64,000 bases of DNA, from positions 608,001-672,000 of the forward strand of contig CAXXLL010000002.1 in the NCBI GenBank assembly GCA_963662545.2, given 5' to 3'. This document shows, piece by piece, positions 4,977 to 63,485 of the stretch (within the stretch, counting starts at the first letter, position 1; the number at the start of each line of letters is the position of its first letter). A program made the translations under genes and the position numbers. The notes beneath the pieces are model-generated. The model did not search any database. It saw only the letters and a list, made by a program, of their open reading frames with translations, and was not told the origin of the DNA. This stretch comes from Gammaproteobacteria bacterium (GTDB taxonomy: Bacteria; Pseudomonadota; Gammaproteobacteria; Ga0077536).

Positions 4977-5110
4977 ATGATCGCTATGGGTCGATAGCCG
5001 CCTCCTCGCGGCAGCGCAGCACCTTTCCAAATCACGTCTGCAATGCGCTCATAAGCGGTCGACAAGTTCCCTGAAGCGTCGAGTCGAGAGGGTACGGCTG
5101 CAGTCGGCCA
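4977..5110 (+). repeat. tripartite palindromic repeat, copy R1 (third palindrome interrupted by element E1; resumes at 7607)
   Basis: GATCGCTATGGGTCGATAGCCGCC / ACGTCTGCAATGCGCTCATAAGCGGTC / GGCTGCAGTCGGCCA|TGAGCGGTC. Confidence 0.85.
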
Positions 5111-5246
5111 GGGGACGAAACCGCTATCGCGGTAGTGGTTAGCGAGGTCGTGGCGGAGTTGTAGTCAGTTCAGTTAGCAAGATGGGCCCTCCCTGTGTTG
5201 AGGTTGTTATCGCCAAACAACGACCAACAACACAGGAGACAAGCCC

Positions 5247-6131
5247 ATGACCCAGTCTAACAAAACCATCAGCCCGTTGTACGTCAACGCATGATCGACG
5301 ACATGACGTTGCGTCAGCTGCAGGAGAAAACGCAGACCGGATATCTGCGTTCCGTCAAACGCTTGACGAAGTTTCTGGGTCGCTCGCCGGATACGCGCGT
5401 CAGCCGAAGACCTGCGCGCGTTTCAAAAACAGTTGGTTGAACACGGCGCGTCGAGCGCGACCATCAATGCCACGATCCGCGGTCTACGGTTCTTCTTCGA
5501 GACCACCTTGGAACGCCCAGCGGCACTCAAACGGATGAGTCCGGTGCGGGTGCCGGAGCGCTTGCCGGTAGTCTTGAGCGTTGCAGACGTCACCCGCTTA
5601 CTAGACGCCGCGCCCAATCTGAAGTCGAAAGCCGCGCTGTCGGTGGCCTACGGTGCCGGCTTATGCGCCAGCGAAGTCTGCCACCTCAAAATCACCGACA
5701 TCGACAGTGAACGGATGATTATCCGGGTCGAGCAGGGTAAAGGTTCGCGCGACCGTCAAGCGATGCTCTCGCCCGCTTTGTTAGGTTTACTGCGCGCTTG
5801 GTGGCGCGACGGTCATCGCCGCGGCAAGATGCTCCCCAAGGGTTGGCTGTTCCCCGGCAGGGATCCCGTTGACCCGCTCTCACCTCGTCAACTCAATCGC
5901 ATGTGTCACTTCGCCGCGGCCACCGCCGAGTTGGATAAACAGATCTCCATGCACACCCTACGCCACAGTTTCGCGACGCACTTGCTCGAACAGCAGATCG
6001 ATATCCGGGTCATCCAGGTATTACTTGGCCACAAGAAGCTGACCACCACGGCGCGCTATGCCCATGTCGCAACGAAGGTGTTGAGCGACGTACAAAGTCC
6101 CCTCGACCGACTGAGCTTACCGACGCCGTAA
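5247..6131 (+). pseudogene. tyrosine recombinase, frameshifted
   Basis: Homologous to 19660-20541; +2 and +1 indels near 5280 and 5395; catalytic R changed to C (AGLCASE); [13 protein letters not shown] retained. Confidence 0.85.
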
Positions 6132-6132
6132 C

Positions 6133-7289
6133 GTGGCGCGGCCACCGCTCGAGGTGGCAGATATTTTTAGACGCGACGGCGCGACCTGGCGTCAAGCGCA
6201 TGCCGGTCATATCAGCCTCGGCCAACTCAAGGTCATGTCTGCCATCGAACACTGCCGCACCGAGGCGCTCGGCGGGCACCTGTTGCATTGCGAGCCGTGC
6301 GATGCAGAGCGTATTGCCTATAACTCGTGCAGGAACCGCCATTGTCCGAAATGTCAGGGACGTAAAGCAGCGCAATGGCTCGAACACCGTCAAGCAGAGC
6401 TGTTGCCGGTCGCGTATTACCATATCGTGTTCACCCTACCCGCACTGATCGCCGAGTTTGCCTATCAGAATAAAGCCGTGGTCTATGACCTGCTGCTTCA
6501 GAGGTGTCTGCTGCAACGCTCTCCACCATCGCCGCCGATCGCAAACACCTGGGCGCCCAGATCGCAATGACCTCGGTGTTGCATACCTGGGGCTCGGCAC
6601 TCACCCATCATCCGCATGTCCATTGCATCGTGCCCGGCGGCGGACTCGATGGCGAGACCTGGGTGCCGTGCAAACGGGGGTTCTTCCTGCCGGTACGGGT
6701 GTTGTCGCGACTGTTCCGGCGCTTGTTTCTGGAGCGGCTCCACCAGGCACACCGTGACGGGCAGCTACACTTCTGCGGTGACTTGGCGACTCTCGCCAAC
6801 CGCGCATCGTTCGACCAGTATCTGGCACCATTGGCGCAAACGGATTGGTTCGTCTACGTCAAACAACCCTTTGCCGGACCCCAAGCGGTGCTGGCTTATC
6901 TGTCGCGCTACACCCACCGCCTCGCCATCTCCAACCATCGGCTCATCGCCCATGATGCGCGTGGCGTCACCTTCCAATGGCAGGACTATCGCAGCAAACG
7001 CCGGGTGCGCTACCAACCCATGACGCTCGCCACCGATGAGTTCATCCGGCGCTTCCTGAACCACGTCTTACCCAGGGGCTTCCATCGCATCCGTCATTAC
7101 GGCTTGCTCGCCAATCCGGTGCGACGCGATAACCTGGCCCGCTTGCGCCGAGCACTCGATATGCACCACGAGCCCGACGTCGAAACACAACCAATTACGA
7201 CACCTTCGCCGACCTTCGTGTGTCGAACCTGTGGCGCGCCCTTACAGATCGTCGAGATCCTAAACCCGAGAACTCGGTCACCGCCATGA
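6133..7289 (+). pseudogene. IS91-family (Y2/HUH) transposase, frameshifted near 6500
   Basis: Zn finger SCRNRHCPKCQ in ORF 6133-6570; HPHVH, YLSRY and GFHRIRHYG in ORF 6504-7289. Confidence 0.88.
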
Positions 7290-7689
7290 CATCGGCTTCT
7301 ACTGACAACAATGACAGGCAGCACGCAGCGGTGTTGGCGATCTCTTATTGCCTCAGCCGTGGCAGACACCCGAACCGCGCGATCAAAACCAACCGATCAC
7401 TCGCTAAAACCGCTCTCAAAAGCATCGATAGCGCCGACATCGGACTTCGAATCGCCGCGCACCACCACACCGTCGACCCACTGCCCTAAACAATCCCCAT
7501 AGCCACGCCCCGCGGTTTCCTCCCCTGGGCGTTATCGAACACCCGCCTCAACGCTGTCGCAGAACCGCGCCCTTGTGCCGTTGCGGGTGTCCAATAACCC
7601 TAACCATGAGCGGTCATAAACATGAAGCGACGAGTTTCTACTCTCACTCCCCACATTCTGGATCGCTGAAACTTCCGACACATGAACGC

Positions 7690-8238
7690 TCACCGGCAGC
7701 TGCTTGACCTGTACTTAACAGGAAGCGTACCACCGCGGCAATCCCACCTAACCCTAGCGTCCTCAATGGACGGTGTGAGCACGATAGTGTGGCTATCACA
7801 GATTTCAACCAAAGTGATGGTTATTACTCCTTGCTCACCTACGGAGACTGAATCAGTCCAGTAACTACTGATCTCTCCAGGGGCAGCCAACTCTGCTTGC
7901 TCGTTACTCGAAGGTAGTTTGCCATGACGCGCAAAATACTCGCTGACAGCGTTTTTACCAGCGCTTGCGAGCGATAGGCTCTCGGTAAACACTTCACGAA
8001 CGAACGGGAGTTGGCTTTGCAAGTACATCGATAGCACCAACGCTACGACGGGAAAGACAAATGCGAGCCCGATGGAAAGGCGATTATGGTTTTTGATTGC
8101 TTCGCGAACTTTCGGCGACACGAATGAAACGAGTACAGACAGAATGCCGAGTGCGAAAGCAATTAGGGCCGTCCACCCGAAGAAACTTGACAAGAAATCG
8201 ATGACTCGCAGATTTTCGGGAATGCAAATTTTGTACAT
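7690..8238 (-). CDS. membrane-anchored protein with a type IV pilin-like C-terminal domain
   Basis: Two hydrophobic segments, then EVFTESLSLASAGKNAVSEYFARHGKLP...GVITIT...WDCRGGTLPVKYRSSSCR; lower GC than flanks. Confidence 0.7.
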   Translation of the reverse strand: MYKICIPENLRVIDFLSSFFGWTALIAFALGILSVLVSFVSPKVREAIKNHNRLSIGLAFVFPVVALVLSMYLQSQLPFVREVFTESLSLASAGKNAVSEYFARHGKLPSSNEQAELAAPGEISSYWTDSVSVGEQGVITITLVEICDSHTIVLTPSIEDARVRWDCRGGTLPVKYRSSSCR

Positions 8239-8377
8239 GCCGGATGGTTCTCAATGCGCGTGGAATAAGGAATCATATCCTGATTCTGAATTGGTGCCGA
8301 AGAGCTGATGCAAAAGATGCTACAACCGTGTGGTCGCCCGTGTGTCGCAGTCGAACCTATGGATTCCTGCAACCGCG

Positions 8378-8510
8378 AAGTCCTAATTGGGTCGTCAGCA
8401 GCCTCATCGCGACAGCGCAACACTGCTCTGGATTACGTCTGCAATGCGCTCGTAAGCGGTCGTCGCGCCAGCTTAATATTCGCTACGAGCGCTGAGTTCC
8501 GCTCGTGGCC
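8378..8510 (+). repeat. tripartite repeat, copy R2
   Basis: GTCCTAATTGGGTCGTCAGCAGCC / ACGTCTGCAATGCGCTCGTAAGCGGTC / TTCCGCTCGTGGCC, followed by an IS1182-IR-like GAGGCTGCGTC. Confidence 0.8.
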
Positions 8511-8939
8511 GAGGCTGCGTCCGGACGTCACGTACAAGCAAAAAGAGATCCGACGACGCGGATTCCTTGTTACCAACGATATAAATTTGTTTACCCGGCT
8601 TCGCCTCACCGTGGTTCGAGGCATTGTGGTAGCGAAGAGCAAAGTCCTTCTCCACGTTCGGTCCAAAACCGCTCACGTGTTTTATTCGCCCGGCAGGCGA
8701 TCGATACGCGAGAATGTTGAGATCACGGCGGATGTCGAAGAGTTAAGCCGTTCTTTTGAACAATGTCCGCGCAGAGAAAAGCTTTTTGGCGATGCCGGGC
8801 GGTCGTCGGTCCGGAAGGTGCGGCGGCGCGGTTACAACCACAAGGCGGCCCAGCGGATGAAGCATGCTTTCTCCCGGGGACGTTCGGTGATGCGAGGCGT
8901 TCAGGAGCCGGCGCCGCTGCCAATGGATTGCATCCCCCT

Positions 8940-10916
8940 TCACTCATCGCGCCCTGTCCCTGCCTTGAAGCCCCGTAACCAGGCACTCGCCTCGCTCGCC
9001 AGGGTCCAACGATCGTCCGGGCCGAGGCCGTCGGGCCCAAAACGGTAACGCTGGTGCAGTTCGGCGAGGCGGCGAAGCGCTGCTGCATCGACCTCGGCGC
9101 CGAAACGGGCGGCGGCGCGTTCAATCCATGCGTGCATCGGTTCGTCGCCGCGCCGCCGGGCGCCGGCGGTCTGAAGCCGCTGCTCGATCTGGTAGAACTC
9201 CGAATCCGCACCCGGCCAGACGGTTCGCGCCGCCACGGCGGACCGCCGGCGGCCAGTGCGCCGGTGCCACAAGAACCACGCGGTGAGCGCGCACGCCATC
9301 GACGCAGCGCCGTAAGACACCCGCCGCGTCGCGATCCCGAACTGCGGCATCTCCCAGGTCCGCCAGCCATACAGCAACCACGAGAAGAGATCGCCGAGCG
9401 GCTCTAACAGCGAGGCGGTCTCATCCTCGACCGTGACCCAGATCGGCGGCGTGGTGTCGACGTCGATCCAGACGCCGTCGATGTAGGCGCGCGCCCAGGC
9501 ATGTGCATGGCGCTTGCGCACGACATAGCCTTCATCAACCAGGCGCCGCTCCTGCACTGAGAAGCCGGTCGCGTAGCGAGCCGGTATACCGGCCGCGCGC
9601 AGCAGGAGGGTCGTCGCGGTTGCAAAGTACTCACAGTGCCCGGCGCGCGAGACCTCGAGGAAGTGGCGCAGCGCCCCGCCCTCCGCTTCGATCGGTCCCT
9701 GGTAGAGCGAGTATGCGAAGCCCTCGAAGAAGTAACCGCGGATGGCTTCGAGGGCGGCACTCGGAGACATGGCATCGAGACCGAGATCCCGGACCACCAG
9801 CGAGAAGAGCGCACGATCGCCTTTGGTGAGATCGCGATCTTGCACAGTCGGTGCCGCCGTGAACGATCGGCCCGGTGATGCGATGGCGGTATAGGTGACT
9901 GTCCCCGCAGCGTCGTGCGCCTCGACCGCGCCGAGCGGATTACGCTTCAGCTGCCCGACCAGTAAACCTTCCACACGGTGGGTCCCGCTCGGCAGCGACA
10001 GCACGCCGACACGGCCCTTGAGATACTCGGAAATCGACACCGCCGATCCGCCGGCTGCGCCGTTCGCGATCTGCCAGGTAGCTTCATCCTCGCCGTGCGG
10101 CACGGATTCGAGTGCCGCGTCGCGCGCATTCCAGTTGCCGTACCGGTACTCGTTGTAGCTCGCCCGGTGCAGCAGTCGCGGCCGAATCTCGGGTCCGAGG
10201 TATTTGACGCGGAGTAGGATCTTGTCCGAAAGCTTGAGTTTGCCGATGTGGCCGATTTCGGTGCGGGTGCGGTAGGGATCGGTGCGCGATCCGGATATAT
10301 TGACGAGGTTCGCCCCCAGCGAAACGATGGTTGCCTGCAGCGCGCTGAGCCCGAGGTGGCCGGCATAGCCCAGGGCGACCGCGACCACAATGAGCGCCGC
10401 CCATGCGAGACCCGCGTACTGCCGCGGCCGCCTCGTCCACAACGCCCCGGTGACGAGCAACGCAAGGCCCGGGTAGAACCACACCGAGTACTCGTAGACG
10501 GCACTGCCCGCGAGCAGGCACACGGCGAAATACGGAAACTCGAGCCTGAAGCTGCGCCCGGATGTGGCGCTGGGTAAACGCCTCAGCAAAGGCAGTGCAT
10601 AGAGCGGCACACTGCCGCGCCGCGACAGGCCCTGAGCGACGAGGAGCGGCGCCAGCACTACGGGCAGCCACTGCACCAGTCGGATGATAGCGTCGCGCAT
10701 CGCGAGCGCGGTCAGCAGATACACCGCGAGGCCGAGTACGGCGAGCACACACGCCATGCCGATGCGGCGGAAGTGCTCATCAGATACATCGACGTTCGGG
10801 CTGGTCAGGCGCGGCCCGATCACGGCGAGGACGAGCACCGCGGCGAGCGGTAGCAACGTCGTCTGATAGCCCCAGAACAGGATCGCGCCCCCGAGCAGGA
10901 TCGAGGCCGCCGTCAC
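8940..10916 (-). CDS. membrane transglutaminase-like domain protein (DUF3488/TgpA-like)
   Basis: N-terminal TM helices; GHCEYFATA, GIPARYATGF, HAHAW and DTTP motifs. Confidence 0.9.
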   Translation of the reverse strand: MTAASILLGGAILFWGYQTTLLPLAAVLVLAVIGPRLTSPNVDVSDEHFRRIGMACVLAVLGLAVYLLTALAMRDAIIRLVQWLPVVLAPLLVAQGLSRRGSVPLYALPLLRRLPSATSGRSFRLEFPYFAVCLLAGSAVYEYSVWFYPGLALLVTGALWTRRPRQYAGLAWAALIVVAVALGYAGHLGLSALQATIVSLGANLVNISGSRTDPYRTRTEIGHIGKLKLSDKILLRVKYLGPEIRPRLLHRASYNEYRYGNWNARDAALESVPHGEDEATWQIANGAAGGSAVSISEYLKGRVGVLSLPSGTHRVEGLLVGQLKRNPLGAVEAHDAAGTVTYTAIASPGRSFTAAPTVQDRDLTKGDRALFSLVVRDLGLDAMSPSAALEAIRGYFFEGFAYSLYQGPIEAEGGALRHFLEVSRAGHCEYFATATTLLLRAAGIPARYATGFSVQERRLVDEGYVVRKRHAHAWARAYIDGVWIDVDTTPPIWVTVEDETASLLEPLGDLFSWLLYGWRTWEMPQFGIATRRVSYGAASMACALTAWFLWHRRTGRRRSAVAARTVWPGADSEFYQIEQRLQTAGARRRGDEPMHAWIERAAARFGAEVDAAALRRLAELHQRYRFGPDGLGPDDRWTLASEASAWLRGFKAGTGRDE

Positions 10917-12223
10917 AGCGCAGCCAGCCCCTGCTGGATGTCGGCGGTGCGCAGCACGTGCAGCGACCCCGCGTCCGGTTCTATCTCGATGTCGGCGTCG
11001 CTGATCACCAGAACCTTGAGCGGCAGGCCGCGCGCCTGTAGGTCGTCGACGATGTCGCGGCGCGGCGTGTCCCAGCGCAGCAGGATGAGGATGCAGCTGC
11101 TGAGGACGGCGAGGCGTTCGAGCACGGCCTCGTGTAGCTCGCGAAAAGGCTTGTCCGTGCAGGCCTCGACGCCGGCCAGGATCTCGAGCATGCCGACGGC
11201 GTGCAGCTGGCCAATCCCCGCGGTGAAGGTGTAGGCCTCGGCGCCGACGAACATGAGGTCGAGCAGGTTTTCCTGCGTCTCGATGGTACAGGCGAACGAC
11301 GCGGCGACGGCCACGGCTTCCTCGAAGACGGTCTCCTCGTGGACGGCCGAGAAGGTGTCGAGCACCAGTGCGTGGCGTTCGAAGAACTCGTCTTGATATT
11401 CCTTCACGACCGGCCGGCCGACCCGCGCGAAGCTCTTCCAGTGGATCTTCTGCAGCGGATCGCCCGCGCGGTAATCGCGCAGACCCACGAACTCCTCGGT
11501 ATCGCCCTTCGAGGCCGCTAGCGTGACGCCGCCATGCTGGTAGATCCGTGTTCCCGGCAGTTCGAGTTCGGGCAGCGCATAGCGTTTCGGGAGAACCAGC
11601 AGGGAACCCTTGAGCGGCGCGCGCGAAAGCGCGTAGAAGATTCCGAGCGGATCAGACTTCGCCAGGGCCACGGCGTCGAACTCAAGGATCCCGCGGTGGG
11701 ACGGGGTGAGCTCGTATTTAATATCGACGTCGTCACCGGGGCCGAGGATGCCGATCGGGCAGGGCTTCGTCTCCGCCACCTGCCTGCGCGAGAGCAGCGC
11801 GCGCCAGCGGGCGAGCACGGACGCGCGCGGGGCGTCGCCGCCTTTCGTCTGACGAAACTCCGCGTAGGTCGGGCGCGGGTCGATGAGCTCGTCGACGAGA
11901 GCGAGCGAGGTGTGCGCGGTCTGATCGTCGTTGTGCACGCGGATGCGGTAGCTCACCGGCTCGCCGATGGTGGCAAAGGGCGGCAGCTCGCGTGTGGCAT
12001 GGAAGCGCGTTCGCAAAAATAGCTGCGCAACGAACGCAACGAAAATGACCGACGCGATGAGCGTGAAGATCTGATAGGCCAGCGTGAGTTCGGTATCGAT
12101 TCCTATCGCAGCCGTGACCAGCAGGCCCGCGAAGAAGAACCGCCCTGTCACCGTGAGGCGCCGCCGCGCCCACGGGTTGACGCCAGAAATAAAGCGCAAA
12201 AGCCGGTACGTCAGCGCCTGCAT
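10913..12223 (-). CDS. DUF58 domain protein
   Basis: EFVGLRDYRAGDPLQKIHWKSFAR motif; located between MoxR and the transglutaminase gene. Confidence 0.9.
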   Translation of the reverse strand: MQALTYRLLRFISGVNPWARRRLTVTGRFFFAGLLVTAAIGIDTELTLAYQIFTLIASVIFVAFVAQLFLRTRFHATRELPPFATIGEPVSYRIRVHNDDQTAHTSLALVDELIDPRPTYAEFRQTKGGDAPRASVLARWRALLSRRQVAETKPCPIGILGPGDDVDIKYELTPSHRGILEFDAVALAKSDPLGIFYALSRAPLKGSLLVLPKRYALPELELPGTRIYQHGGVTLAASKGDTEEFVGLRDYRAGDPLQKIHWKSFARVGRPVVKEYQDEFFERHALVLDTFSAVHEETVFEEAVAVAASFACTIETQENLLDLMFVGAEAYTFTAGIGQLHAVGMLEILAGVEACTDKPFRELHEAVLERLAVLSSCILILLRWDTPRRDIVDDLQARGLPLKVLVISDADIEIEPDAGSLHVLRTADIQQGLAAL

Positions 12224-12240
12224 GGGATGGTCCCGTCGCG

Positions 12241-13200
12241 TCAGGCCGGGAGCGGGTGTTCGTCCATGAGATCCTCGAGGATCGCCTCCGACGATCGACC
12301 CGAGAACCGTGATTTTGGATCGACCGCCATGCGGTGCGCGATAACGGGCGCGATCATCTCACGCAGGTGATCGGGCATGACGAAATCCGACCCGTCGATC
12401 AGCGCCAGCGCCCGCATCGCGTTGAAGAGCGCAATGGATGCACGCGGACCCGTTCCCATCTGCACCGACGCATGCTCGCGGGTCGCCCGCACGATCGACA
12501 CCGCGTAGCGCTGCAGCTCCTCGCTGATGTGGACGTCGCGTACGGCCGATTTCAGCGCCACCACGTCCTCGACCGAGACACAGGCGCCAAGCGCATCGAG
12601 CGGGTGTGAACGCGCCTGCCCGGTGACGACCGCGAGCTCCGCATCAAAGTCGACGTAGCCGAGACTCAGACGAATAGCGAAGCGGTCCATCTGTGCTTCC
12701 GGCAACGGGTAGGTGCCGCGGAACTCGACCGGATTCTGAGTGGCGATCACGAAGAAGAGGTCAGACAGCTGATAGGAGCGCCCCTCGACGCTGACCTGAC
12801 CCTCAGCCATGGCTTCGAGCAGCGCGGATTGCGTCCGCGGCGACGCACGGTTGATCTCGTCGGCGAGGAGGATATCGGTAAACACGGGGCCTTCGCGAAA
12901 ATTGAAGACCTGCTCGCGCGGGTCGAAAACCGAGACGCCGAGGATGTCGGAGGGCAGCAGATCGGGCGTGAACTGCACCCGCTTAAAGCCGGCGCCGACC
13001 GACTTGGCGAGGGCCTTGGAGAGCGTAGTTTTGCCGGTGCCCGGGTAGTCTTCCAGAAGCACGTGACCGCCGCTCGCGAAGGCGGCCACGATCTTGCGGA
13101 GGGATGCGGTCTGGCCGGTGATAACGGTCTCGACGTTAGCAATGATCTTGGCGGCGATTAGCTGTGCCGTCTGAATCGTCGTCGCGGTTGTGTCGTCCAT
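12241..13200 (-). CDS. MoxR-family AAA+ ATPase
   Basis: GHVLLEDYPGTGKT, RVQFTPDLLPSD, LADEINRA, ATQNP and YPLPEAQMDRF motifs. Confidence 0.95.
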   Translation of the reverse strand: MDDTTATTIQTAQLIAAKIIANVETVITGQTASLRKIVAAFASGGHVLLEDYPGTGKTTLSKALAKSVGAGFKRVQFTPDLLPSDILGVSVFDPREQVFNFREGPVFTDILLADEINRASPRTQSALLEAMAEGQVSVEGRSYQLSDLFFVIATQNPVEFRGTYPLPEAQMDRFAIRLSLGYVDFDAELAVVTGQARSHPLDALGACVSVEDVVALKSAVRDVHISEELQRYAVSIVRATREHASVQMGTGPRASIALFNAMRALALIDGSDFVMPDHLREMIAPVIAHRMAVDPKSRFSGRSSEAILEDLMDEHPLPA

Positions 13201-15239: not shown

Positions 15240-15538
15240 GATGTCTGTTCAGGGTCCAGACTGTGTGAAAACTCAATAATACGACGCCGAAAGTAAAAAA
15301 TTCCCCACCAGCATAGTAGTTAAGCACCATGAAAAGGGATCAGCACATCGCATTAATCCACTTCCGAGTGTCGGTTCCCCACTTTTGAAAAACGCAAATA
15401 GTTTTCACACAGTCTGGGTCGTTAGCCGCCGCCTCGCGGCAGTGCAGCACTGGTAATAGTTACGTCTGCAATCCCCTCGTAAGCGGTCGTCCTGTTGTTT
15501 TAAGTGTCGCGCTCCAAGCCCATTTCGGCTTTCGGCCA
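15240..15538 (+). repeat. tripartite repeat, copy R3 (MITE in first palindrome; E2+E3 in third; resumes at 21839)
   Basis: GATGTCTGTTCAGGGTC[MITE]GGTCGTTAGCCGCC / ACGTCTGCAATCCCCTCGTAAGCGGTC / TCGGCTTTCGGCCA|GGAGCGGTC. Confidence 0.85.
15257..15416. mobile_element. 160-bp IS1182-type MITE
   Basis: Perfect IRs CAGACTGTGTGAAAACT / AGTTTTCACACAGTCTG; 4-bp TSD GGTC. Confidence 0.88.
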
Positions 15539-16263
15539 GAGGACTAAACCGCTCGCGCGGTAGGGGGAGGTTTCACCAGGCGTTAGCGATGGATTGACGG
15601 GAAGGGTCTGTCCCGTGTTGATGTTGGTTTGCGACATGCAACTCAACACAAGGAACAGACCCATGACCCAGAACAAGCATTCTATCAGCCCGTTGCGTCA
15701 ACGCATGCACGACGACATGCGCCTTCGTAAGCTCTCTGAGAAAACACAGACAGCCTATATCCGTGCGGTCAAGAATTTCACCCGCTTTCTCGCCCGTTCT
15801 CCCGACACCGCCGGTAGCGAAGACCTGCGGCGTTATCAACTTCACATGGTCTCCACCGGCGTGTCTCGCACGACCATCAACGCCACCATCACCGGTTTGC
15901 ACTTTTTCTTTGAGATCTCCCTCGAGCGGCCCGATGCGATGAAACGGATGAGTACCGTGCACGTGGAACGTAAGCTCCCGGTGGTCTTGAGCGGTGAGGA
16001 AGTTGCGCGCCTGTTACAAGCCGCGCCCGGCATCAAGTACCAGGCGGCGTTGTCGCTCGCCTATGGCGCCGGCCTTCGCGCCGGCGAGGGAGTCATGCTG
16101 AAAGTCACCGATATTGACCGTGAGCGCAAGCTCCTGCGCGTCGAGCAGGGTAAGGGACGCAAGGACCGCTACGCTATGCTCTCACCGACCTTGCTCAAGG
16201 TGTTGCGCACCTGGTACCGCAGCGCTGCATCGCAGGGCAAGATGTGGCCCCACGGCTGGCTAG

Positions 16264-17649
16264 GAGTTATAACTGAATCTGGTGTTTGAGCGAATTGAAT
16301 AAAGGCGGCGTATCTGGTTGAAATGTTGTTACCAAGCAGCAAGCCAACCAAAGAGGATACGCCACCATGAGAGAGAGTAACGTTGTTGAATTATCAGGTC
16401 GAGAAGGAATACCAGATCCGTTGACGGAGGTTTTGAGAAACGGTGCACGGGCGCTGATTGAGCGAGCAGTTGAAAGCGAGCTGGCAGAGTATTTGGCGCA
16501 GTATTCAAGCCATCGCACGGCGGACGACAAAGCAGGTGTGGTTCGCAACGGCTATTTGCCGGAACGCCAGTTGCAGACGGGCTTGGGGACGGTCACGGTC
16601 AGGATACCGAAGGTTCGTTCGAAGCTCGGCGAGCCGGTGACCTTCCGTTCAGCGCTGGTGCCGCCGTATGTGCGCAAGACAAGAACCTTGGAGGCGGCCG
16701 TGCCGTGGCTGTATTTGAAGGGCGTTTCCAGTGGCGAAATGGGCGCTGCGCTGGAAGTTTTGTTGGGGCCGCAGGCGAAGGGCCTGTCGGCGAGCACAGT
16801 GTCGCGCTTGAAGCAGGTGTGGGCGCAAGAATACCGCGACTGGTGCGAGGGGCGATTGGACCAAGACCGCTGGGTGTAGGTGTGGGCGGACGGTGTCTAC
16901 AGTGGCCTGCGGGCGGAGCACACGAAGCTGTGTGCGTTGGTGGTGATCGGCGTCAATGAGCGAGGCGAGAAGCGTTTTTTGGCGATGGAGGATGGTGTGC
17001 GGGAGTCCACGCAGAGCTGGCGCGAGGTGTTGCTGAAATTGAAGTCACGCGGGATGAATATTCCCAAGCTGGCGATCGGGGACGGTGCCATGGGCTTCTG
17101 GGCCGCACTGGAGGAAGTCTACGGTGAGACCCGCCAGCAACGCTGCTGGATGCACAAGACGATGAACGTGCTGAACTGCCTACCGAAGTCAGCACAGGCC
17201 AAAGCCAAGCAAGCCCTGCACGCGATCTGGCAGGCCGCGACAAAGGCCGACGCCGAGAAGGCGTTCGAGCTGTTCCTCAAGACCTATGAACCGAAGTATC
17301 CCAAGGCGACCCTGTGCCTACAGAAAGACCGTGAGGAGTTGCTGGCGTTCTATGATTTTCCGGCACCACATTGGCAAAGCATTCGCACGAGCAATCCGAT
17401 TGAATCCACCTTCGCTACGATCCGGCACCGGACCCGGCGCTCCAAGGGCGGTCTCTCTCGGGACGGCATGCTCCATATGATGTTCAAGCTGGGGCGGTGT
17501 GCGCAGAAGAATTGGCGACGCCTACGTGGATTCGACTACCTGGCCAAGGTGATTACTGGAGTTAAATTTGAAGATGGTATCGAGGTGACAAGGGTCAATC
17601 AGGTCGCCGCTTGATTCAACCGCCTGAACACCACTTTTGACAATAACTC
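16264..17649 (+). mobile_element. IS256-family element, copy 1
   Basis: IRs GAGTTATAACTGAATCTGGTG / CACCACTTTTGACAATAACTC; 9-bp TSD CGGCTGGCT (two extra bases on the left). Confidence 0.92.
16367..17614 (+). pseudogene. IS256 transposase with an in-frame TAG at 16877-16879
   Basis: RNGYLPER, RWV*VWADG, IGDGAMG, QRCWMHK and RTSNPIES motifs. Confidence 0.88.
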
Positions 17650-17963
17650 CGGCTGGCTGTTCCCGGGGCAGAACCCCGTCAACCCTCTGACCACCCGCCA
17701 GCTCAACCGGGCCTGTCATGCGGCGGTGGACCTAGCGACCATCGATAAGCGCGTGTCGCTGCATACGCTGCGCCATTCATTCGCAACTCATTTACTCGAG
17801 CAGGGGGTCGACATCCGTGTGATCCAGGTGCTGCTCGGACACCAGAAGCTCGAGACCACCGCGCTGTACTCCCAGGTCGCCATGCGCACGCTTCGTGAGG
17901 TCGTGAGCCCACTGGAACATCTCACCCTGGAGTTGAGACCGCCCGCCTGACCCGGCGGGTGAG

Positions 17964-19157: not shown

Positions 19158-19659
19158 CCCTCGACCGTTCGAACTCGCCAGCCCACCAGCCCACAAATCG
19201 CCGCTTTACCACCGGCAACGTTACCGTCTTGCTTGGCGCCGTGACGAGACCACATAGCGGTACCGATCCCGCTCCTCAACGTCCGGTCACCCACCCACCT
19301 CATTGCACGCTGACCCGTTCTTGCCCGACACACCGCTTGCCGTTGGCTACCGATCATATCAATCCGAACAACGCCACCCTCAAATCCCCATAGCACCGTG
19401 CCGACCAACGCGCCGGCGTTCTTCTCCCGCGGTTTCCTCCCTTGAGGCTTGTCAGACGCCTGCCCCCACCCTCTCGACCCAGTCCGTCCACTGTCTACGG
19501 CAGGCATCTGACAACCCTTAACAGAGGACGAAACCGCTATCGCGGTAATGGTCGGCGAGGTTGTGGCGGAGGTGTTGTAAATTGAGTTAGCAAAATGGGC
19601 TCACCCTGTGTTGAGGTTGTTATCGCCAAACAGCAACCAGAAACACAGGAGATAAGCCC

Positions 19660-20541: not shown

Positions 20542-20542
20542 C

Positions 20543-46994: not shown

Positions 46995-47065
46995 ACGTCC
47001 GCTCACCCCGAAAGCAGCCATGACCGGCGATGCGAATCCCACACTTGACCATGACGGCTTTCGGC
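46995..47065 (+). repeat. partial repeat copy R7
   Basis: ACGTCCGCTCACCCCGAAAGCAGCC and GACGGCTTTCGGC, cut off by an IS end. Confidence 0.55.
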
Positions 47066-47784: not shown

Positions 47785-47917
47785 AAGTCCGGTTTGGGTC
47801 GTGAGCCGCCGCCTCGCGGCAGCGCAGCAATACTCTAGATTACGTCGGCAATACCCTCGTAAGCAGACATTAAGTAGCGTTTAGCTGCGTGCACATTATG
47901 AGCGTCGGCTTCCGGCC
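47785..47917 (+). repeat. tripartite repeat, copy R8 (IS1182 in third palindrome; resumes at 50996)
   Basis: GTCCGGTTTGGGTCGTGAGCCGCC / ACGTCGGCAATACCCTCGTAAGCAGAC / GTCGGCTTCCGGCC|AACAGTGGAC. Confidence 0.85.
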
Positions 47918-48107
47918 GAGGCCGTGTCAAAAGTCGGAATACGGTGGGGTCATGTTGAGAATACACGCGCAGACGAACGTCGGTGCCGTTCACCGGCCGC
48001 GATAACCGCCCCCTCAATCGACCGGCAAATGAAACGTTCTTCAGAACCGCCCCTGAGGCCGCCCTTGGAACTCTGAAACCGCCGGTTCTTTCAGGCGAAA
48101 GAGGGCG

Positions 48108-53118: not shown

Positions 53119-53427
53119 AATGTCGCCTTGGGGTCGTCAGCAGCCTGATTGGGGCGGTGCAGCACCTTTCAGCAACACGTCTGCTGTCCCCTCGTAAGCG
53201 GTCATTAAGTAGCGTTCGACGACGCGACTATGACGGACGGCGGCTCTCGGCCGAGGCTGTGTCAAAAGTATTTTCGAATTTTGAAAGTGGGAGAAGTTTA
53301 GCCCGATTCGTCTACCTTAGGCGGTGCGTTCCCTTAATCAATCGTGCATAACAACCTAAGTGGGGAAAATTTTCACGGCGGGCTCCATTTTTCGACTTTT
53401 GACACAGCCTCGGCCATTTGCAGACGT
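53119..53427 (+). repeat. tripartite repeat, copy R9 (MITE in third palindrome)
   Basis: AATGTCGCCTTGGGGTCGTCAGCAGCC / ACGTCTGCTGTCCCCTCGTAAGCGGTC / GGCGGCTCTCGGCC[MITE]GGCCATTTGCAGAC. Confidence 0.85.
53253..53411. mobile_element. 159-bp IS1182-type MITE (inverted relative to the other three)
   Basis: IRs GAGGCTGTGTCAAAAGT / ACTTTTGACACAGCCTC, almost identical to the IS1182 ends; TSD GGCC. Confidence 0.9.
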
Positions 53428-53463
53428 CGATCGATTTCGGATTCTGTTATTTGAGTGTCCTCT

Positions 53464-53715
53464 TTAGCGATGTATCTGGAACATGTTCTGAGTACAGTGC
53501 CAGTAAGTCTCGATATCGAACACGCGCTTGAGGCGTTGCGCCCATGTCATAGCGGTGCGGCGCTGGGCGGGCGTCTTGTCTTCGGTGCGATCGCGCGGTG
53601 GCCGTCCCCGCCCGGCCGGCGTGACGGCGGCACGATGGGCGCTGTTGGGGGCGAACACGCCGTGGAAGCGCGTCAGGTTGACCCGGGGCTTGGGCACCAG
53701 GGCGACCAGGCGCAA
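53464..53715 (-). pseudogene. ISCR-type IS91 transposase fragment
   Basis: LVPKPRVNLTRFHGVFAPNS...MTWAQRLKRVF. Confidence 0.8.
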
Positions 53716-55747: not shown

Positions 55748-55820
55748 TGACGATCCTCCAATAAACCAAGCCTAAGATAATGGCGCATTTTCACATGTAA
55801 CGGCGGCTTATGACACCCGT

Positions 55821-56128
55821 GATGTCCGTTATGGGTCCAGGCTGTCCGAAAACTCCGAAAAATCGTTACGTGACGAAAAGTTCCCCCACTTGTTGTCCTC
55901 ATAGCAGATGAATTAGGGATCACACTGTTCGAATTGATCAAGTTGGATAACGCATCCCCCACTTTCCAAATTCGAAATTAGTTTTCGGACAGGCTGGGTC
56001 GTTAGCGGCCCCGTCGCCACAGCACTGCACTGCTAAGCATTATGTCTGCAGTACCCTCAATAGCGGTCGTCCAATAGCGTTCGGTGGCACGAGCATGACG
56101 CGCGGCGGCTGTCGGCAAAAAACGGTCA
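55821..56128 (+). repeat. tripartite repeat, copy R10 (MITE in first palindrome)
   Basis: GATGTCCGTTATGGGTC[MITE]GGTCGTTAGCGGCC / ATGTCTGCAGTACCCTCAATAGCGGTC / GGCGGCTGTCGGCAAAAAACGGTC. Confidence 0.85.
55838..55996. mobile_element. 159-bp IS1182-type MITE
   Basis: IRs CAGGCTGTCCGAAAACT / AGTTTTCGGACAGGCTG; TSD GGTC. Confidence 0.87.
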
Positions 56129-56361
56129 TGAACATCTTCAACTTTGCAAAAGAAAACCCCGCGCTGAGGAACACTTTGCAAAAGAAAACCCCGCGGAGGT
56201 GGAGCTTCGTATTCTGATAGCGATCCGGCATCCCTTCCGCCTAAGAATCTCCACAAGCGGAACTGGCGGGCCTTATCGACTAAGGCTCGATGCACCCCTA
56301 AACTCGAGCACGGATGCCAGGCCTCATTGCTTCGCTATTTCCCGCATTCGTAAAGCGTAGT

Positions 56362-57421: not shown

Positions 57422-57605
57422 CTAAGCTCGCGTTTGATTTGTCCATGCACGCCGCGCTTTTGACCGGACCGGCAAGACGCGTAGGGACTTGGGCGCGTTA
57501 TGGCAGGAGTAACCCTTGTCGACATAGACGCGCTCCGGTGCGACACCAATCCAGTTGGTCAAATCTTCGATGACGGTCCTGAGGGTGCTGTCGTCATAAG
57601 GGTTT
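57422..57605 (-). pseudogene. IS5-family transposase fragment
   Basis: NPYDDSTL...VYVDKGY; ends at the left edge of repeat R11. Confidence 0.65.
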
Positions 57606-57606
57606 G

Positions 57607-57750
57607 AGGTCCGCAAAGGGTCGTCACCCGCCTAATCGCGGCACTGCAGCACTTCTCAAGGTTACGTCTGCAATGCGCTCGTAAGTGGTCGTCGAGGTCC
57701 CTCAAGCGTCGAGTCGAGAGGGTACGGCTGCAGTCGGCCACAAGCGGCCA
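57607..57750 (+). repeat. tripartite repeat, copy R11 (uninterrupted; empty counterpart of R1)
   Basis: GTCCGCAAAGGGTCGTCACCCGCC / ACGTCTGCAATGCGCTCGTAAGTGGTC / GGCTGCAGTCGGCCACAAGCGGCC. Confidence 0.87.
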
Positions 57751-57789
57751 TCACATTCGTACAGACCAAGTTCGTCAATCGTCGATGGG

Positions 57790-58330
57790 GGCGATAATCT
57801 TGACCATGCCGCTCCACGCCTGGCAGGTCTCGTTATCGATGTTGAACAGGCTTTGGGGCGTTGTGCCCATGTCATGGCAGCGCGTCGTTGGGCCGGTTCC
57901 TGGTCGCCGCGACGAGCGGGCGTGACCTGGGCGCGCAGCGGGCTATTCGGCGCAAAGACGCCGTGGTAGCGGATGAGGTTGACGCGGGGGTTGGGAATGA
58001 GTGCCGCGAGGCGTGCCACCAGATCGAGCGGCTCGAAAAAGACATGGGTGGTGCCATCGCGATAAGGCGTTTTGAGCGCGTATCGCACGAGGCCCTGTGA
58101 GGTGAGTGACAGGCGCTGTTCGGAGAGCGCGGGTCGGGTGATATAGCGGCACAGTCGTTCGAGTTTCTTTTGTTCCCAGGGCTCGGTGGCGACGCCAGCG
58201 TGCAACGAAAAGCCCGAGGCTTTGGCGAGTCTCTCGCCGGGCGGGTCCTGTTCGCTCTGCGCCGGCAGGGTTTGCAGGGTGAAGGCCTGGTGGCCTTGCC
58301 GTGGTCCCAGGCGAATATCGCGGCGTAATG
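57790..58330 (-). pseudogene. ISCR-type IS91 transposase fragment
   Basis: GFSLHAGVA, LERLCRYITRP, KTPYRDGTTH and RYHGVFAPNS motifs. Confidence 0.85.
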
Positions 58331-58948
58331 CGACGGCTCGGGCGTATCCACGATTGATGACATGTCGGTTGGACGCCTGAATAGATGCCCCAATTAAACA
58401 CCAGGTCTGGACTGTAGCGGCACATATTATTCGCCCACAAGCGGGCTCCGATCCGCTCCCCATAGGCGCCCGCTTGCTGGCGAAATACGGAGGGTCCTTC
58501 CGGCCTGGTCGAAACTCGAATGGGAGGTCAGCACTGTGATCGCATGCCCGTTCGGATCCGCCATCCGGAAATACCAGTGGCCGTACCCCAGCCGAGCGCC
58601 GATCTCTCCGGTTCGAGCCCCGCTTCCTGCAGTCGGGTTCGGTATCGTTCGAGGTGCTCGCGCTCGTGTTGGGGGATCATGCTGTCGACCGGCCCGATGT
58701 GGCCGGAATACCCGGCGTTGGAGGCTGGAAATTCTGGTAACAGGTACGCCCTATCCCCGCCGTCACCGGCGGCGGCTAACCCGTCTGTTAGAAACGATCT
58801 GAAGTAAATATACTGTGGGAGAACCGTTACGTAAGTTACGAGGAATACTTATGGCGCCCCGCCTGGAACTCGTCGACGTCGGCAGTCCGATGAAGTGGCT
58901 GGACGCTCACGGATCGCCTCGTCGAAGCACTTATCAAGGATATCGTAA

Positions 58949-59848: not shown

Positions 59849-59854
59849 TTCCAC

Positions 59855-60410
59855 ATGAAGACTTTTCCCCACCTTGAAGTCAAAGGCGACGCGGCGGCGC
59901 GCGGCGGCGCTCACGGCGAGGCGTTTCGCGAGCGGATCGAGAAGACGTTTTCGTTCTACATGGACGACCTCTTTGCGTCGAGCCCTCTGTCGGGAGCGGA
60001 GATCGAGGCGCGCGCGAACCGGATCAAGGCACTGACCGTGGAAGCCGCGCCCGACTGTGCTGCGGAAATCTCCGGGATCGCGGCTGGCGCCAATCTCGAA
60101 GAATGGAAACTCTTCGTGCTCAACGCCCGCACGGAGATTCTGAATGCGAAGGTCACCGAATGTACGGCTTTCTACTTCGCGGAATCGCGGGTGCTCGCGC
60201 AGAACTGGGACTGGGTCGAACCGCTGGAAGACCTGGCCGTCGTCATCACGCACGAAAGAGACGACGGGCGGCGATACGCAGTCTTCGTTGAGCCCGGCAT
60301 GATCGGAAAGATTGGGCTCAACAGCGATGGGATCGGGGTATGCCTAAACATTCTGTTCACGCCGCACGATTTGAGCGGCCTGCCGATCCATATCCTGAAC
60401 GGCGCGTTAC
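59855..60410 (+). pseudogene. C45-family (Ntn) peptidase/acyltransferase, truncated and fused to an IS3 fragment
   Basis: LNARTE, ECTA, AQNWDW and KIGLNSDG motifs; sequence switches to IS3 at about 60411. Confidence 0.8.
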
Positions 60411-60738
60411 TGGATTCCGACCGCGGACCGCAATACACCAGCGATGACTTCCGAGCGCTACTGGCGCGTTACGGGATCGAATGCAGTATGAGTGGTCGTG
60501 GTAGTTGTTACGACAATGCACCGGTCGAAAGCTTTTTCGCGCTACTCAAGCGCGAGCGCATTCGCCGACGCACTTACGCTTCTCGAGAGGACGCCAAGGC
60601 TGATGTGTTCGACTACATCGAGCGTTTCTACAACCGATGTCGGCGTCATGGCTACCTGGACTATTCCAGTCCGGTAGACTTTGAAAGGCAGGCAGTGAAG
60701 ACTTAATCAACTGGTCCGAAATTCTGGGGCCGAACCAC
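60411..60738 (+). mobile_element. IS3-family remnant (orfB C-terminus + right IR)
   Basis: SDRGPQYTS, CYDNAPVESFF and YIERFYN motifs; end CTGGTCCGAAATTCTGGGGCCGAACCA. Confidence 0.82.
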
Positions 60739-60792
60739 TCGGCCATTTGCAGATGTCGATCGATTTCGGATTCTGTTATTTGAGTGTCCGCT

Positions 60793-61440
60793 TTAGCGAT
60801 GTATCTGGAACATGTTCTGAGTACAGTGCCAGTAGGTCTCGATATCGAACACGCGCTTGAGGCGTTGCGCCCATGTCATAGCGGTGCGGCGCTGGGCGGG
60901 CGTCTTGTCTTCGGTGCTATCGCGCGGTGGCCGTCCCCGCCCGGCCGGCGTGACGGCGGCACGATGGGCGCTGTTGGGGGCAAAGACGCCGTGGTAGCAG
61001 ATGAGATTGACGCGCGGTTTGGGGATCAGAGCGGCCAGGCGTGCAATAAAGTCCATCGGTTCGAAGAACACGTAGGTGGTGCCGTCACGATGGGAGGTTT
61101 TGAGTTCGTAGCGCACGAGGCCGTTGGCAGCCAGCGAGAGGCGTTTTTCGGAGAGCGCGGGGCGGGTGATGTAGCGGGTGAGACGTTCGAGCTTGTTGCG
61201 TTCCCACGGTGCGGCGGCCACGCCGGCATGAACGGAGAAGCCGCCCGCCTTGGCCGAGCGCGCGCTGGTGCGCGCAGGCTCAGCTTGGGCCGGCAAGGTT
61301 TGAAGTGTGAAAGCCTTGCGCCCTTGGCGGGGCCCGAAGGCAATGCGGTAGATGATGGAACTGCCGAGCACCTGGGCCAAGCCATCGTCATCGCGAGGCT
61401 CGAGCTTGGCTGGCGCGAAAGCCAGCAGATTGTAGCCCGT
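60793..61440 (-). pseudogene. ISCR-type IS91 transposase fragment
   Basis: SIIYRIAFGP, GFSVHAGVA, LERLTRYITRP and HGVFAPNS motifs. Confidence 0.85.
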
Positions 61441-62161: not shown

Positions 62162-62195
62162 CGGTGGCCCTCAAAAAGGACGGGTCGACACCCGC

Positions 62196-62650
62196 GCATA
62201 GGTAGAACAAAGGCCCTTTTCGGTATGTCGGCCGAGTATTCTGAGGTCATCGAACAACTGTCGAGCTGAACTTCGACACGGTGTTGGTCTGGGTCTCGCG
62301 CCTGAGTCGGCAGAAATCTCGCACTTCAGGGTGATTTTGCGATTGTTCCGAGCGTCGGGATAACAACAACTCTGCCACCTCGTTGGCATCGCAGCTGCGG
62401 GTGTTAGTCGCGCAGTTGGCGTGCATCAGCCAAACAAGCTGGCCTGAGGCGGTCCCCGAGACGGTGGCGAACGCCGGGCGGCGCCTAAAGCATCTTTGCG
62501 CTCGAGGTGCGTCAGGATCTCCTCGATCACGACAGGTTCTTCGATGCAGGCGATGATGCGCACAGTACCCGCAGGCTCTGCAGATGGTGATGTCGATTTG
62601 AAACACGCGCTTGAGTCTTTGTGACCATGTCACTGCGGCGGGGCGCTCTG
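62196..62650 (-). mobile_element. ISCR-like 3' remnant with a candidate oriIS end
   Basis: TWSQRLKRVFQIDITICRACG; minus strand GAAAAGGGCCTTTGTTCTACCTATGC resembles ISCR ori ends. Confidence 0.65.
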
Positions 62651-62656
62651 CGAACC

Positions 62657-62801
62657 TGACCGCATTGGCCCGTCAGCGGCCCCTTCGCGGCAGTTCAACA
62701 CTGTTCTAGATCAGGTCTGCAATCCTCTCGTAAGCGGTCGTGCGGCAGTGTTCAGCGGTGCGGTTAAGGTGCAGAGCGGTAGTCGGCCAGCACCGGACAT
62801 T
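62657..62801 (+). repeat. tripartite repeat, copy R12 (uninterrupted)
   Basis: GACCGCATTGGCCCGTCAGCGGCC / AGGTCTGCAATCCTCTCGTAAGCGGTC / AGCGGTAGTCGGCCAGCACCGGAC. Confidence 0.82.
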
Positions 62802-62860
62802 CACAGTGATCTCGGTCGTCGCTATCCTACGTGTTCGTTTACAGACGGGAGGTGTTAGAT

Positions 62861-63379
62861 ATGAATTTCGAGGCGATTAGTGCTACGGCCGAGAGTTTGG
62901 GTGCTCTCGGCGTAATATTATCGGTGCTCTACCTTGCGTACGAAGTTCGCTCGAACACTCGCACGATGCGCGCTGATGCGGGCACCAAGTCCCAGATGGA
63001 ATGGTCACGATACAACTTGATCATTTCCGAACATCAGGACAGAGACACGATAGTTCGTATATTCGATCCAAATGAAAAGTTGGATAATTTCAGTGACAAG
63101 GAAAGGACTGCCATTACTTTCGCGTTTCGTGCTTTCGCACAGCAGGTGGAAGCACAATATTTTCAATATAAGGCGAATTTGCTCGACCCAGAAGTTTGGG
63201 AGGCCCGCCTGACTTCGTTTAGTGGCCTCGTGCAATTCCCTGCATCTGCCGAGTGGTGGGCAGATGAATCGACGCTGCCTATTTACACAAAGTCGTTTCT
63301 CGACTGTGTCGAGTCGGTCGGAAGAGTCGAGCTATCCCAAACTACGACGGTTGGGACAGGCACTCAGAAGATATCTTAA
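62861..63379 (+). CDS. hypothetical protein with an N-terminal TM helix
   Basis: GGAGG RBS; MNFEAISATAESLGALGVILSVLYLAYEVRSNT; lies between repeat copies. Confidence 0.75.
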   Translation: MNFEAISATAESLGALGVILSVLYLAYEVRSNTRTMRADAGTKSQMEWSRYNLIISEHQDRDTIVRIFDPNEKLDNFSDKERTAITFAFRAFAQQVEAQYFQYKANLLDPEVWEARLTSFSGLVQFPASAEWWADESTLPIYTKSFLDCVESVGRVELSQTTTVGTGTQKIS

Positions 63380-63446
63380 CTTTGTAGCCAGCGTGTGGAA
63401 CCGAATCCGGGGAAGCGAACTAACGTATTTAAAGGACACCACTGAC

Positions 63447-63485
63447 ATTTCCAGTTTGGGTCGAGGATGACCGCAAAGGGTCGTC
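63447..63485 (+). repeat. partial repeat R13 (two first-palindrome half sites)
   Basis: TTCCAGTTTGGGTCG and GACCGCAAAGGGTCGTC, then an IS3 end. Confidence 0.55.

Follow-up and report, generated by a model that had tools for sequence, protein, structure and literature searches.

Co-oriented 130-bp repeats bound cargo arrays and draw mobile elements in a gammaproteobacterial genome: candidate recombination sites of an integron-like system

Does the repeat that divides a 64,000-nt stretch of a gammaproteobacterial genome into gene cassettes serve as a recombination site through which cargo is stacked, or is it a passive sequence favoured by transposons? The stretch, hereafter the window, spans positions 608,001–672,000 of contig CAXXLL010000002.1 in assembly GCA_963662545.2; an earlier note had described in it a + strand series of tripartite palindromic repeats and proposed a non-IntI integron-like array. 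An initial repeat search of the window yielded a 10-copy family of about 129 nt, the alignment of which revealed conserved blocks. With an nhmmer profile built from the window copies, we detected 10 full copies and one truncated copy of this approximately 130-bp repeat, termed M, on the + strand throughout. The full copies have E-values from 1e-30 to 1e-37, and no minus-strand match in the window is significant (best reverse matches, E > 2); the reported series is real. Copies of M are 60–85% identical. Beyond M, the window contains one diverged variant, termed V, and two fragments that hold a single box. These elements are listed below in window coordinates, with A, B and C denoting the three boxes of M, together with the insertion sequences (ISs) and miniature inverted-repeat transposable elements (MITEs) found at them.

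4976–5116, +: M copy 1 (nhmmer, E 8.8e-34), the first copy of a 39-copy, 136-kb array
8379–8515, +: M copy 2 (nhmmer, E 3.9e-32)
15257–15416, +: MITE1, with 17-nt terminal inverted repeats, at the A-box hexamer of M copy 3 (sequence alignment)
15402–15542, +: M copy 3 (nhmmer, E 3e-37), its C box holding an IS91-family element as seen at the junction
23407–23549, +: M copy 4 (nhmmer)
24916–25148, +: MITE1 (24916–25075) followed by the truncated M (25061–25148, profile columns 2–89; nhmmer, alignment)
25988–26105, +: M copy 6 (nhmmer)
46944–47065, +: variant repeat V (BLAST and alignment)
47786–47924, +: M copy 7 (nhmmer), with an IS5/IS1182-like IS at the C box from about 47920
53120–53257, +: M copy 8 (nhmmer), with MITE2 (53255–53409) at the C box
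55982–56129, +: M copy 9 (nhmmer), with a diverged MITE1/IS5-like end remnant just upstream (about 77% identity)
57605–57751, +: M copy 10 (nhmmer), with a Y2-transposase fragment starting at the C core
60738–61380, no strand assigned: paralogous unit that starts with a C box only (TCGGCCA) and includes another Y2-transposase fragment (alignment); the unit is 94% identical to 53409–53708
62657–62801, +: M copy 11 (nhmmer)
63440–63480, +: A-box-only fragment with two GGGTCG motifs (sequence view)

Several starts proposed before had to be moved. Positions 15240 and 24900 are not repeat starts and belong to the MITE of about 160 nt lodged in box A, with an M copy directly downstream; position 55821 lies upstream of the M copy at 55982, at the diverged MITE/IS end, and the supposed partial copy at 46995 is V. 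The partial copies at 60740 and 63447 are the C-box-only site and the A-box-only fragment, respectively. An Rfam gathering search of the window gave 0 matches, and ARAGORN found 0 tRNA or tmRNA genes in it.

Sequence alignment revealed that M consists of four conserved blocks separated by linkers of fixed length but variable sequence, with 10 copies aligning over 158 columns without a gap. The three boxes noticed earlier are conserved blocks in fixed order and at fixed spacing; each is about 24 bp long and laid out as a 6-nt arm, 3 nt, a hexamer, 3 nt and a second 6-nt arm, the hexamers being GGGTCG (A), nnCTCG (B) and CGGCCA (C). Such gap-free spacing with variable linkers fits a protein–DNA complex rather than an RNA or a hairpin. 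Box A matches the reverse complement of box C at 12.2 of 24 positions, against 10.8 in direct comparison and 6.8 for shuffled controls (58 copies). The boxes had been taken for imperfect palindromes, and weak dyads are indeed present, but they are too weak to fold: across 71 full copies, the RNAalifold consensus energies of the two strands were –1.1 and –1.6 kcal/mol, with helices of 3–5 bp only and no covariation, and single-copy folding of 12 copies gave z-scores of –1.6 to +2.0, versus –5.3 to –15.8 for the attC sites of the same genome. No RNA or single-stranded DNA structure was found in M. No target duplication around M was seen by eye, and its strict co-orientation is atypical for a MITE. 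V shares the C-left end of M and has a B-like centre; it occurs in 10 copies genome-wide, of which seven immediately precede M arrays and share their strand. A gene of about 190 codons for a GIY-YIG nuclease-like protein, present in three copies (C2:606125–606679, C2:1616068–1616637 and C3:385457–386008, where C2 and C3 are contigs), ends where V begins, at or near array heads. We considered this gene as a partner of the arrays and rejected it, since it directly precedes three V copies but is absent from the two congeneric genomes described below.

A profile scan for clustering and strand bias, suggested in the earlier note, bore out both. At a threshold of E <= 1e-3, the window-copy profile matches the 5.58-Mb source genome (G000) 121 times in 18 clusters, a count slightly inflated by a few copies doubled in near-identical contig-end segments. 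Every run of M is strictly co-oriented (39/39, 17/17, 11/11, 9/9 and 9/9). The largest cluster, C2:612977–749008, contains 39 copies, all +, over 136 kb, and its head lies in the window; two loci are back-to-back runs of opposite orientation, and 8 matches are solitary. Eleven arrays cover about 5.8% of the genome, and the spacing from one M to the next ranges from 213 to 21801 bp (median, 2378). In seven arrays, 146 genes lie on the same strand as the repeat and 132 on the opposite one, as called by a crude open reading frame (ORF) finder; the co-oriented repeats thus delimit cargo of mixed orientation, as had been claimed, and the near-even split indicates that M is not tied to transcription. 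An orientation linked to replication was also rejected, given that arrays of both orientations lie inside one (positive) GC-skew arm of C2. The contig-end segments shared by C2:2578406–2586680 and C3:909923–918197, and by C3:8971–13429 and C2:2586676–2591134, are 99.8–100% identical, owing either to recent duplication or to ambiguity in the assembly. Islands that contain some of the arrays lie beside tRNA genes and P4-type integrases; these are not shared with the congeneric genomes G001 or G002.

Among 41 related genomes searched with a sequence-only covariance model, M is present in three, all of the same genus (84 matches in G000, 23 in G001 and 7 in G002, the latter two being 89% and 95% complete), and the 38 genomes of other genera gave 0 matches. 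One G001 contig has 14 profile matches, all +. Array positions vary between the species, and one G002 array adjoins a core block that has no array in G000. Pattern counts for short M-like elements in other genomes equal those of reversed-pattern controls; a metagenome scan with the block-3 pattern returned 2 short contigs only and is uninformative; and neither empty junctions nor free S-type palindromes occur near the arrays in the genome.

The boxes of M are precise landmarks for an IS91-family element. In this element a tyrosine recombinase gene lies immediately ahead of that for a Y2 transposase bearing the IS91 zinc domain (Pfam Phage_integrase, Y2_Tnp and Zn_Tnp_IS91; 219.5 bits for PF04986 and 110.2 bits for PF14319). 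G000 has six copies, which belong to two types that share 68% identity. In five of them, ...TCGGCCA and two variable bases of M or V precede the left end, and beyond the right end come two bases and AGCGGnC, exactly the remainder of an interrupted box C; the sixth lies directly after the right end of another copy. In M copy 1, the C box is occupied in this way, with the junction ...TCGGCCA/nn/GGAC.... The elements in the window are as follows.

5111–7615 (approximate to a few bases), +: IS91-family element of type 1 (BLAST, end alignments), tyrosine recombinase then Y2 HUH transposase, both broken; an intact copy at C2:1616781–1619284, with its recombinase gene at C2:1616923–1617804, is 98% identical
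15541–19521 (approximate), +: IS91-family element of type 2, recombinase and 397-aa Y2 transposase (Pfam Y2_Tnp and Zn_Tnp_IS91)
about 16264–17650: IS256-type IS interrupting the type 2 element (Pfam Transposase_mut)
19524–21847, +: decayed IS91-family element of type 1, directly after the right end of the type 2 element (Pfam, end alignments)

All six copies are co-oriented with M or V. Three of them occupy V, although V is present in 10 copies and M in 121, which marks V as a preferred site of the element. The occupied sites rank 2 of 41, 4 of 41, 1 of 10, 1 of 5 and 4 of 18 in their arrays (ranks read by hand; Fisher combined p = 0.018), a bias toward the array heads. Alignment of the six copies shows two dissimilar ends, no duplication of the flanking dinucleotides, and conserved flanks (CGGCCA and nnAGCGG). 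The pair thus shows the defining features of the IS91 family: a Y2 HUH transposase with a zinc domain, two unlike ends, no duplication and a specific target. PMC13181058 likewise describes IS91 as having distinct ends, no target duplication, a target beside the initiating end, frequent one-ended transposition and single-stranded circles.

The recombinase holds the position of orf121 of IS91, the upstream ORF abutting tnpA. Its sequence retains the catalytic R, H-x-x-R and Y motifs, and it is 32–33% identical to the two IntI proteins of the genome and 29–33% to the Xer pair. IS91-linked recombinases score 83–103 bits against the integron integrase model TIGR02249, the cut-off of which is 265; in a bioRxiv classification, they are grouped with IntI in an 'Integron-like' subgroup that lacks the insertion of IntI. 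The nearest relatives, 82–85% identical, come from metagenome-assembled genomes (MAGs) labelled Arenicellales or Gammaproteobacteria; M is absent from the flanks of their ISs and from five of those genomes. More distant alphaproteobacterial relatives of the recombinase-carrying IS91 (57–60% identity) reach 15 or more copies per genome, each preceded by a conserved motif of about 17 nt and two hypervariable bases; we looked for target repeats around the IS in an alphaproteobacterial MAG and discarded the idea, since about 17 nt are conserved there and arrays are absent.

Do cargo units also end at the boxes? Comparison of paralogous and orthologous units gave about ten informative cases, a small sample. 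In five, the break lies at the C hexamer. A FAD-oxidase unit, 95.6% identical between G001 and G000 and set in different neighbourhoods, retains high identity from CGGCCA to the next GGGTCG, with 1 mismatch in the last 58 nt before GGGTCG versus 9 in the following 37. Three further units, ordinary or IS-related, begin at the C hexamer, and other breaks lie at the A hexamer, a frequent IS location. Two adjacent units occur in opposite order, X-M-Y in G000 and M-Y-M-X in G002; some of the remaining breaks in the comparison fall at columns ~30–75 of M. Cargo orientation relative to M is conserved in every duplicated or shared unit for which BLAST strands were read (about ten, by hand), so there is no sign of inversion. 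Within the window, the features between and beside the repeats are listed below; a 21-kb cargo block follows M copy 6 and extends to about 46239.

7690–8238, –: pilin-like cargo gene (Pfam PF00114, 55.9 bits)
8940–13200, –: cargo block with transglutaminase-like, DUF58 and MoxR-type AAA genes (Pfam; GC 0.63–0.68)
22132–23058, –: acetoacetate decarboxylase, cargo beside M copy 4 (Pfam)
23803–24687, +: rhodanese, cargo beside M copy 4 (Pfam)
57702–58463, –: Y2-transposase fragment at the C core of M copy 10 (Pfam Y2_Tnp, 77 bits)
59855–60706: IS3-type integrase fragment, directly upstream of the C-box site at 60738
62247–62633, –: transposase-like ORF piece cut at the A box of M copy 11 (about 65 nt of DNA similarity to other Y2 pieces; no Pfam family)

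The stretch from 9001 to 13000, with a GC content of 0.63–0.68 versus about 0.58 for the genome, is probably of foreign origin.

Mobile elements other than the IS91-family element also adjoin the boxes. Genome-wide, their positions relative to M are as follows.

1.69-kb IS5/IS1182-like IS (Pfam): box A in 13 and box C in 1 of the 15 full copies
MITE1: box A in 17 and box C in 3 of the 22 copies, these 20 sharing a single orientation relative to M
MITE2: an M C core no more than 9 nt away in 8 of the 11 copies, and V alongside one more
1383-bp IS: 2 of 5 at a C core

In the window, an IS3-type fragment and three decayed minus-strand Y2-transposase pieces start at C cores, and a fourth transposase-like piece is cut at A. 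MITE1, of about 160 nt, has the terminal repeats of the 1.69-kb IS5/IS1182-like IS, and the target specificity of the two is unusually strict for a DDE element. MITE2 consists of 141 nt plus terminal repeats; it and the related IS from 47920 onward both sit at C boxes. A composite of 8.2 kb, bounded by two IS5/IS1182-like copies, carries three M-flanked units between arrays.

Two further classes of recombinase were considered. A tyrosine recombinase of about 200 aa without an N-terminal domain has three paralogues (C3:352378, C3:1447224 and C2:486784), two of them within 2.5 kb of array tails and one split by an IS; their identity of 94–97% in protein versus 80–93% in DNA suggests purifying selection, and none was found in G001 or G002. 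As for a serine resolvase partner, the genome has a single resolvase-domain match, in a 113-aa frame with an internal stop.

Taken together, M belongs to a real integron-like array for which a literature search, within the library and terms used, returned no description, and a function as recombination site is plausible. We propose, tentatively and with more doubt than confidence, that M and V serve as attachment sites in a process of DNA accretion, which IS91-borne machinery would drive in trans. In this model, M and the head variant V would act in cis as attachment sites for orientation-preserving accretion of DNA, M working as a double-stranded, non-hairpin module of about 130 bp. The joins would fall at the edges of the C and A hexamers; a segment entering a resident site would become flanked by two co-oriented copies, and arrays would grow as stacks of such modules. 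The enzyme would be supplied in trans, most likely by the recombination machinery of the resident IS91-family elements, with the IntI-like tyrosine recombinase as the favoured candidate and the Y2 transposase as a possible one. The sister species would carry enzyme-less relic arrays, comparable to attC clusters without integrase, and later reshuffling might occur by homologous exchange between copies. The array structure, the lack of folding, the exact IS junctions, the head bias and the cargo breaks at the hexamers are observed; that some recombinase acts on M, that it is this one and that cargo enters through the sites are points that we infer. A bolder version, in which a second, IntI-independent cassette-accretion system uses an IS91-carried recombinase, from among the closest known relatives of integron integrases, on double-stranded non-hairpin cores within the 130-bp module, with V as the preferred entry site at array heads and multi-gene cargo of either orientation piled into arrays of up to 136 kb, and is a cousin or forerunner of the integron, appears unlikely to us.

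Several observations weigh against accretion driven by the IS91-borne recombinase. In M-free genomes, 11 of 18 left ends of the IS family (loci L011–L032) also follow CGGCCA, and 15 of 38 alphaproteobacterial left ends follow ...GACGT, where M is likewise absent; at the alphaproteobacterial MAG loci only the last ~17 nt before the IS are conserved, and there are no arrays. These shared motifs indicate that the IS family has its own long, lineage-specific target, contained in box C, and the C box may simply include that target. The tie between the recombinase–IS91 pair and the repeats is physically exact, with five of six copies placed right after the C hexamer, but the pair behaves as an ordinary IS that targets a CGGCCA-type motif in genomes without M. 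The recombinase is absent from G001 and G002, where the best matches are 34–36% identical and Xer-like; these two genomes hold only short Y2_Tnp fragments, and G002 has only 2 tyrosine recombinases, so that no recombinase is common to the three species. By eye, the IS end junction resembles box C in CCA and GGAC only, and the M profile has no significant match to either end of the IS91 element (best shuffled controls, up to 8 bits); homology of M to these ends was rejected accordingly, a local 12/14 match to the left end seen by eye not being significant. The gene layout is unlike that of an integron, with cargo strand random (146/132) and spacing of 213–21801 bp. Other breakpoints between paralogous M copies fall at columns ~30–75, within conserved blocks, a pattern expected of homologous exchange, and some of the mosaicism indeed looks like such exchange. 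Several unrelated transposon families insert at A and C, and a hot target needs no dedicated recombinase. Finally, the stretch is present in sequencing runs of eight studies, covering several coded hosts and sponge metagenomes, and the bacterium is probably sponge-associated. Contigs of two runs from other hosts bridge M at 47786, at 55982 plus 57605 and at 62657 in the same arrangement as the window. In this comparison of four runs as Logan contigs, neither circular nor deletion junctions could be demonstrated, and M–M joints with sides under 40 nt and extra letters were attributed to cross-mapping of other M copies and given no weight as evidence of excision. The capture of cargo through the repeats, as first proposed, thus agrees with the units that break at C and A hexamers but has to contend with the scattered breakpoints and the two congeneric genomes without the recombinase.

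These points bear directly on the other explanations. If no dedicated recombinase exists, M could be a passive, genus-specific intergenic mosaic repeat of the repetitive extragenic palindromic (REP)/bacterial interspersed mosaic element (BIME) kind, or of the enterobacterial repetitive intergenic consensus (ERIC) kind, that serves as a transposon target, with arrays arising through IS rearrangement and homologous recombination. We regard this as a serious contender, albeit a somewhat unlikely one: IS and MITE families of different chemistries hit A and C with high specificity, the 8.2-kb composite has moved three M-flanked units, breakpoints lie inside conserved blocks, no recombinase is shared by the species and the arrangements are stable across hosts. 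Such a repeat would nevertheless be expected to scatter, whereas M is strictly co-oriented in 11 arrays and, unlike REP units, is unfolded; the breaks at the C hexamer rest on 7–15 nt of shared sequence, short for RecA-type exchange, and the spread of 121 copies with one orientation per locus is left unexplained. Alternatively, M might be the end signal of non-autonomous rolling-circle units mobilized by the Y2 transposase in trans, with one-ended transposition beside the ...CCA end generating head-to-tail arrays and cutting genes at the variable end. M ends in ...CGGCCA and the IS, on its right side, in ...ACCA or ...AACA; both ends do occupy the same position next to the same nnAGCGGnC flank. 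One IS copy directly follows the right end of another, three to four decayed Y2 pieces abut M in the window, and one ORF piece is cut at an A box. As described in PMC13181058, IS91 mini-elements with only both ends (89 bp and 82 bp) transpose with transposase in trans, one-ended events are frequent and the intermediate is single-stranded. We consider this explanation distinctly improbable, however, given that the M profile shows no significant similarity to the resident IS91-family ends, that the IS91 rule includes no conserved 6-nt flank at the terminating (left) end, that G001 and G002 retain only Y2-transposase fragments and that shared units exclude M on both sides, which is unexpected if M were a constant end.

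A function without any DNA movement is slightly less credible still: M might be a module bound by a DNA-binding protein of the host, acting in the regulation or the structure of accessory islands. Its fixed-spacing blocks, variable linkers, lack of folding and retention in three species would suit such a role, but there is no link to gene orientation (146 versus 132), copies occur only in variable islands, the positions of which change from one species to another, and breakpoints and insertions are concentrated at the boxes. The most remote of the alternatives, to which we assign hardly any weight, is that M is an unusual attC site in integrase-less clusters serviced by true integron integrases. 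Two IntI proteins above the TIGR02249 cut-off are indeed encoded in G000, at 462.5 and 461.1 bits, and nowhere else is that cut-off exceeded; both genes, at C2:996723 and C3:1527239, are far from M arrays, and no M profile match lies within 35 kb of either. The former is preceded by 9 attC sites of its own, about 110 nt long with CCTAAC...GTTAGG (RYYYAAC...GTTRRRY) ends and a consensus fold of –68 kcal/mol, whereas M, with z-scores of –1.6 to +2.0, forms no hairpin. M does not fold and the attC sites of the same genome do. The genome thus carries a canonical integron, from which M is distinct; the fold control effectively refutes an attC identity. The earlier exclusion of attC, clustered regularly interspaced short palindromic repeats (CRISPR) and REP accordingly stands, with neither an Rfam match nor a fold in M and no likeness to the genome's own attC sites. 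This complete integron lies outside the window at C2:985250–997664, and the second IntI (C3:1527239–1528180) has no adjacent array. A single dif-like site at C2:2180004, near a GC-skew sign change on C2, is likely the replication terminus marker and is unrelated to boxes A, B and C.

With integrons M shares long co-oriented arrays of ~60–140-bp repeats that delimit accessory cargo and a related tyrosine recombinase at the array heads, while the arrays of its relatives lack the enzyme, much as attC clusters without an integrase form the so-called CALINs (clusters of attC sites lacking integron-integrases). It differs in that its sites are unfolded and lack R''/R' boxes, its cargo units exceed those of integrons in size (median spacing 2.4 kb, up to 22 kb), and are possibly multi-gene and in either orientation, and the recombinase scores below IntI and lies inside an IS91-family element, with a separate canonical integron in the same genome. 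The element itself resembles IS91 and ISCR in its Y2_Tnp and zinc domains, two different ends, lack of duplication, specific target and an upstream ORF at the orf121 position; here, however, that ORF is a full tyrosine recombinase, the target extends well beyond a tetranucleotide, with conservation on the left side, and M shows no homology to the IS ends. REP units are insertion targets of some IS3- and IS110-family elements, and M is similarly a mosaic lying between genes, built of short near-palindromic units joined by conserved linkers and targeted by several IS families with nucleotide precision, but it lacks hairpin potential and is clustered, strictly co-oriented, island-confined and genus-specific. 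In the pdif (Xer-site) modules of Acinetobacter plasmids, cargo is bounded by short recombinase-type sites and the module has no recombinase gene; M arrays likewise show discrete cargo modules and the same module in different contexts, although the host dif-like site is unrelated to the boxes and the M sites are embedded in a 130-bp oriented module. The res sites of Tn3-family serine resolvases are tripartite, about 120–130 bp long, with three imperfect dyads in fixed order and spacing, and M is comparable in size, in its three dyad subsites and in their order and spacing; it differs in that the genome holds one broken resolvase-domain match and the 121 sites are not linked to a Tn3-type transposon. 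Unlike CRISPR repeats, M copies are 60–85% identical and spaced 0.2–22 kb apart.

In summary, even on the ordinary reading, this genome clearly exemplifies a repeat on which several transposon families converge with nucleotide precision, a matter of interest for research on insertion sequences, and it shows that recombinase-carrying IS91 elements have long, lineage-specific targets. If M copies are recombination sites, they would constitute a gene-stacking platform distinct from the integron, with other sites and larger cargo of any orientation. Such a platform would depend on an enzyme of the IntI sister group that is carried by IS91-family elements, which would bear on the origins of integrons and on how accessory islands are built in host-associated bacteria.

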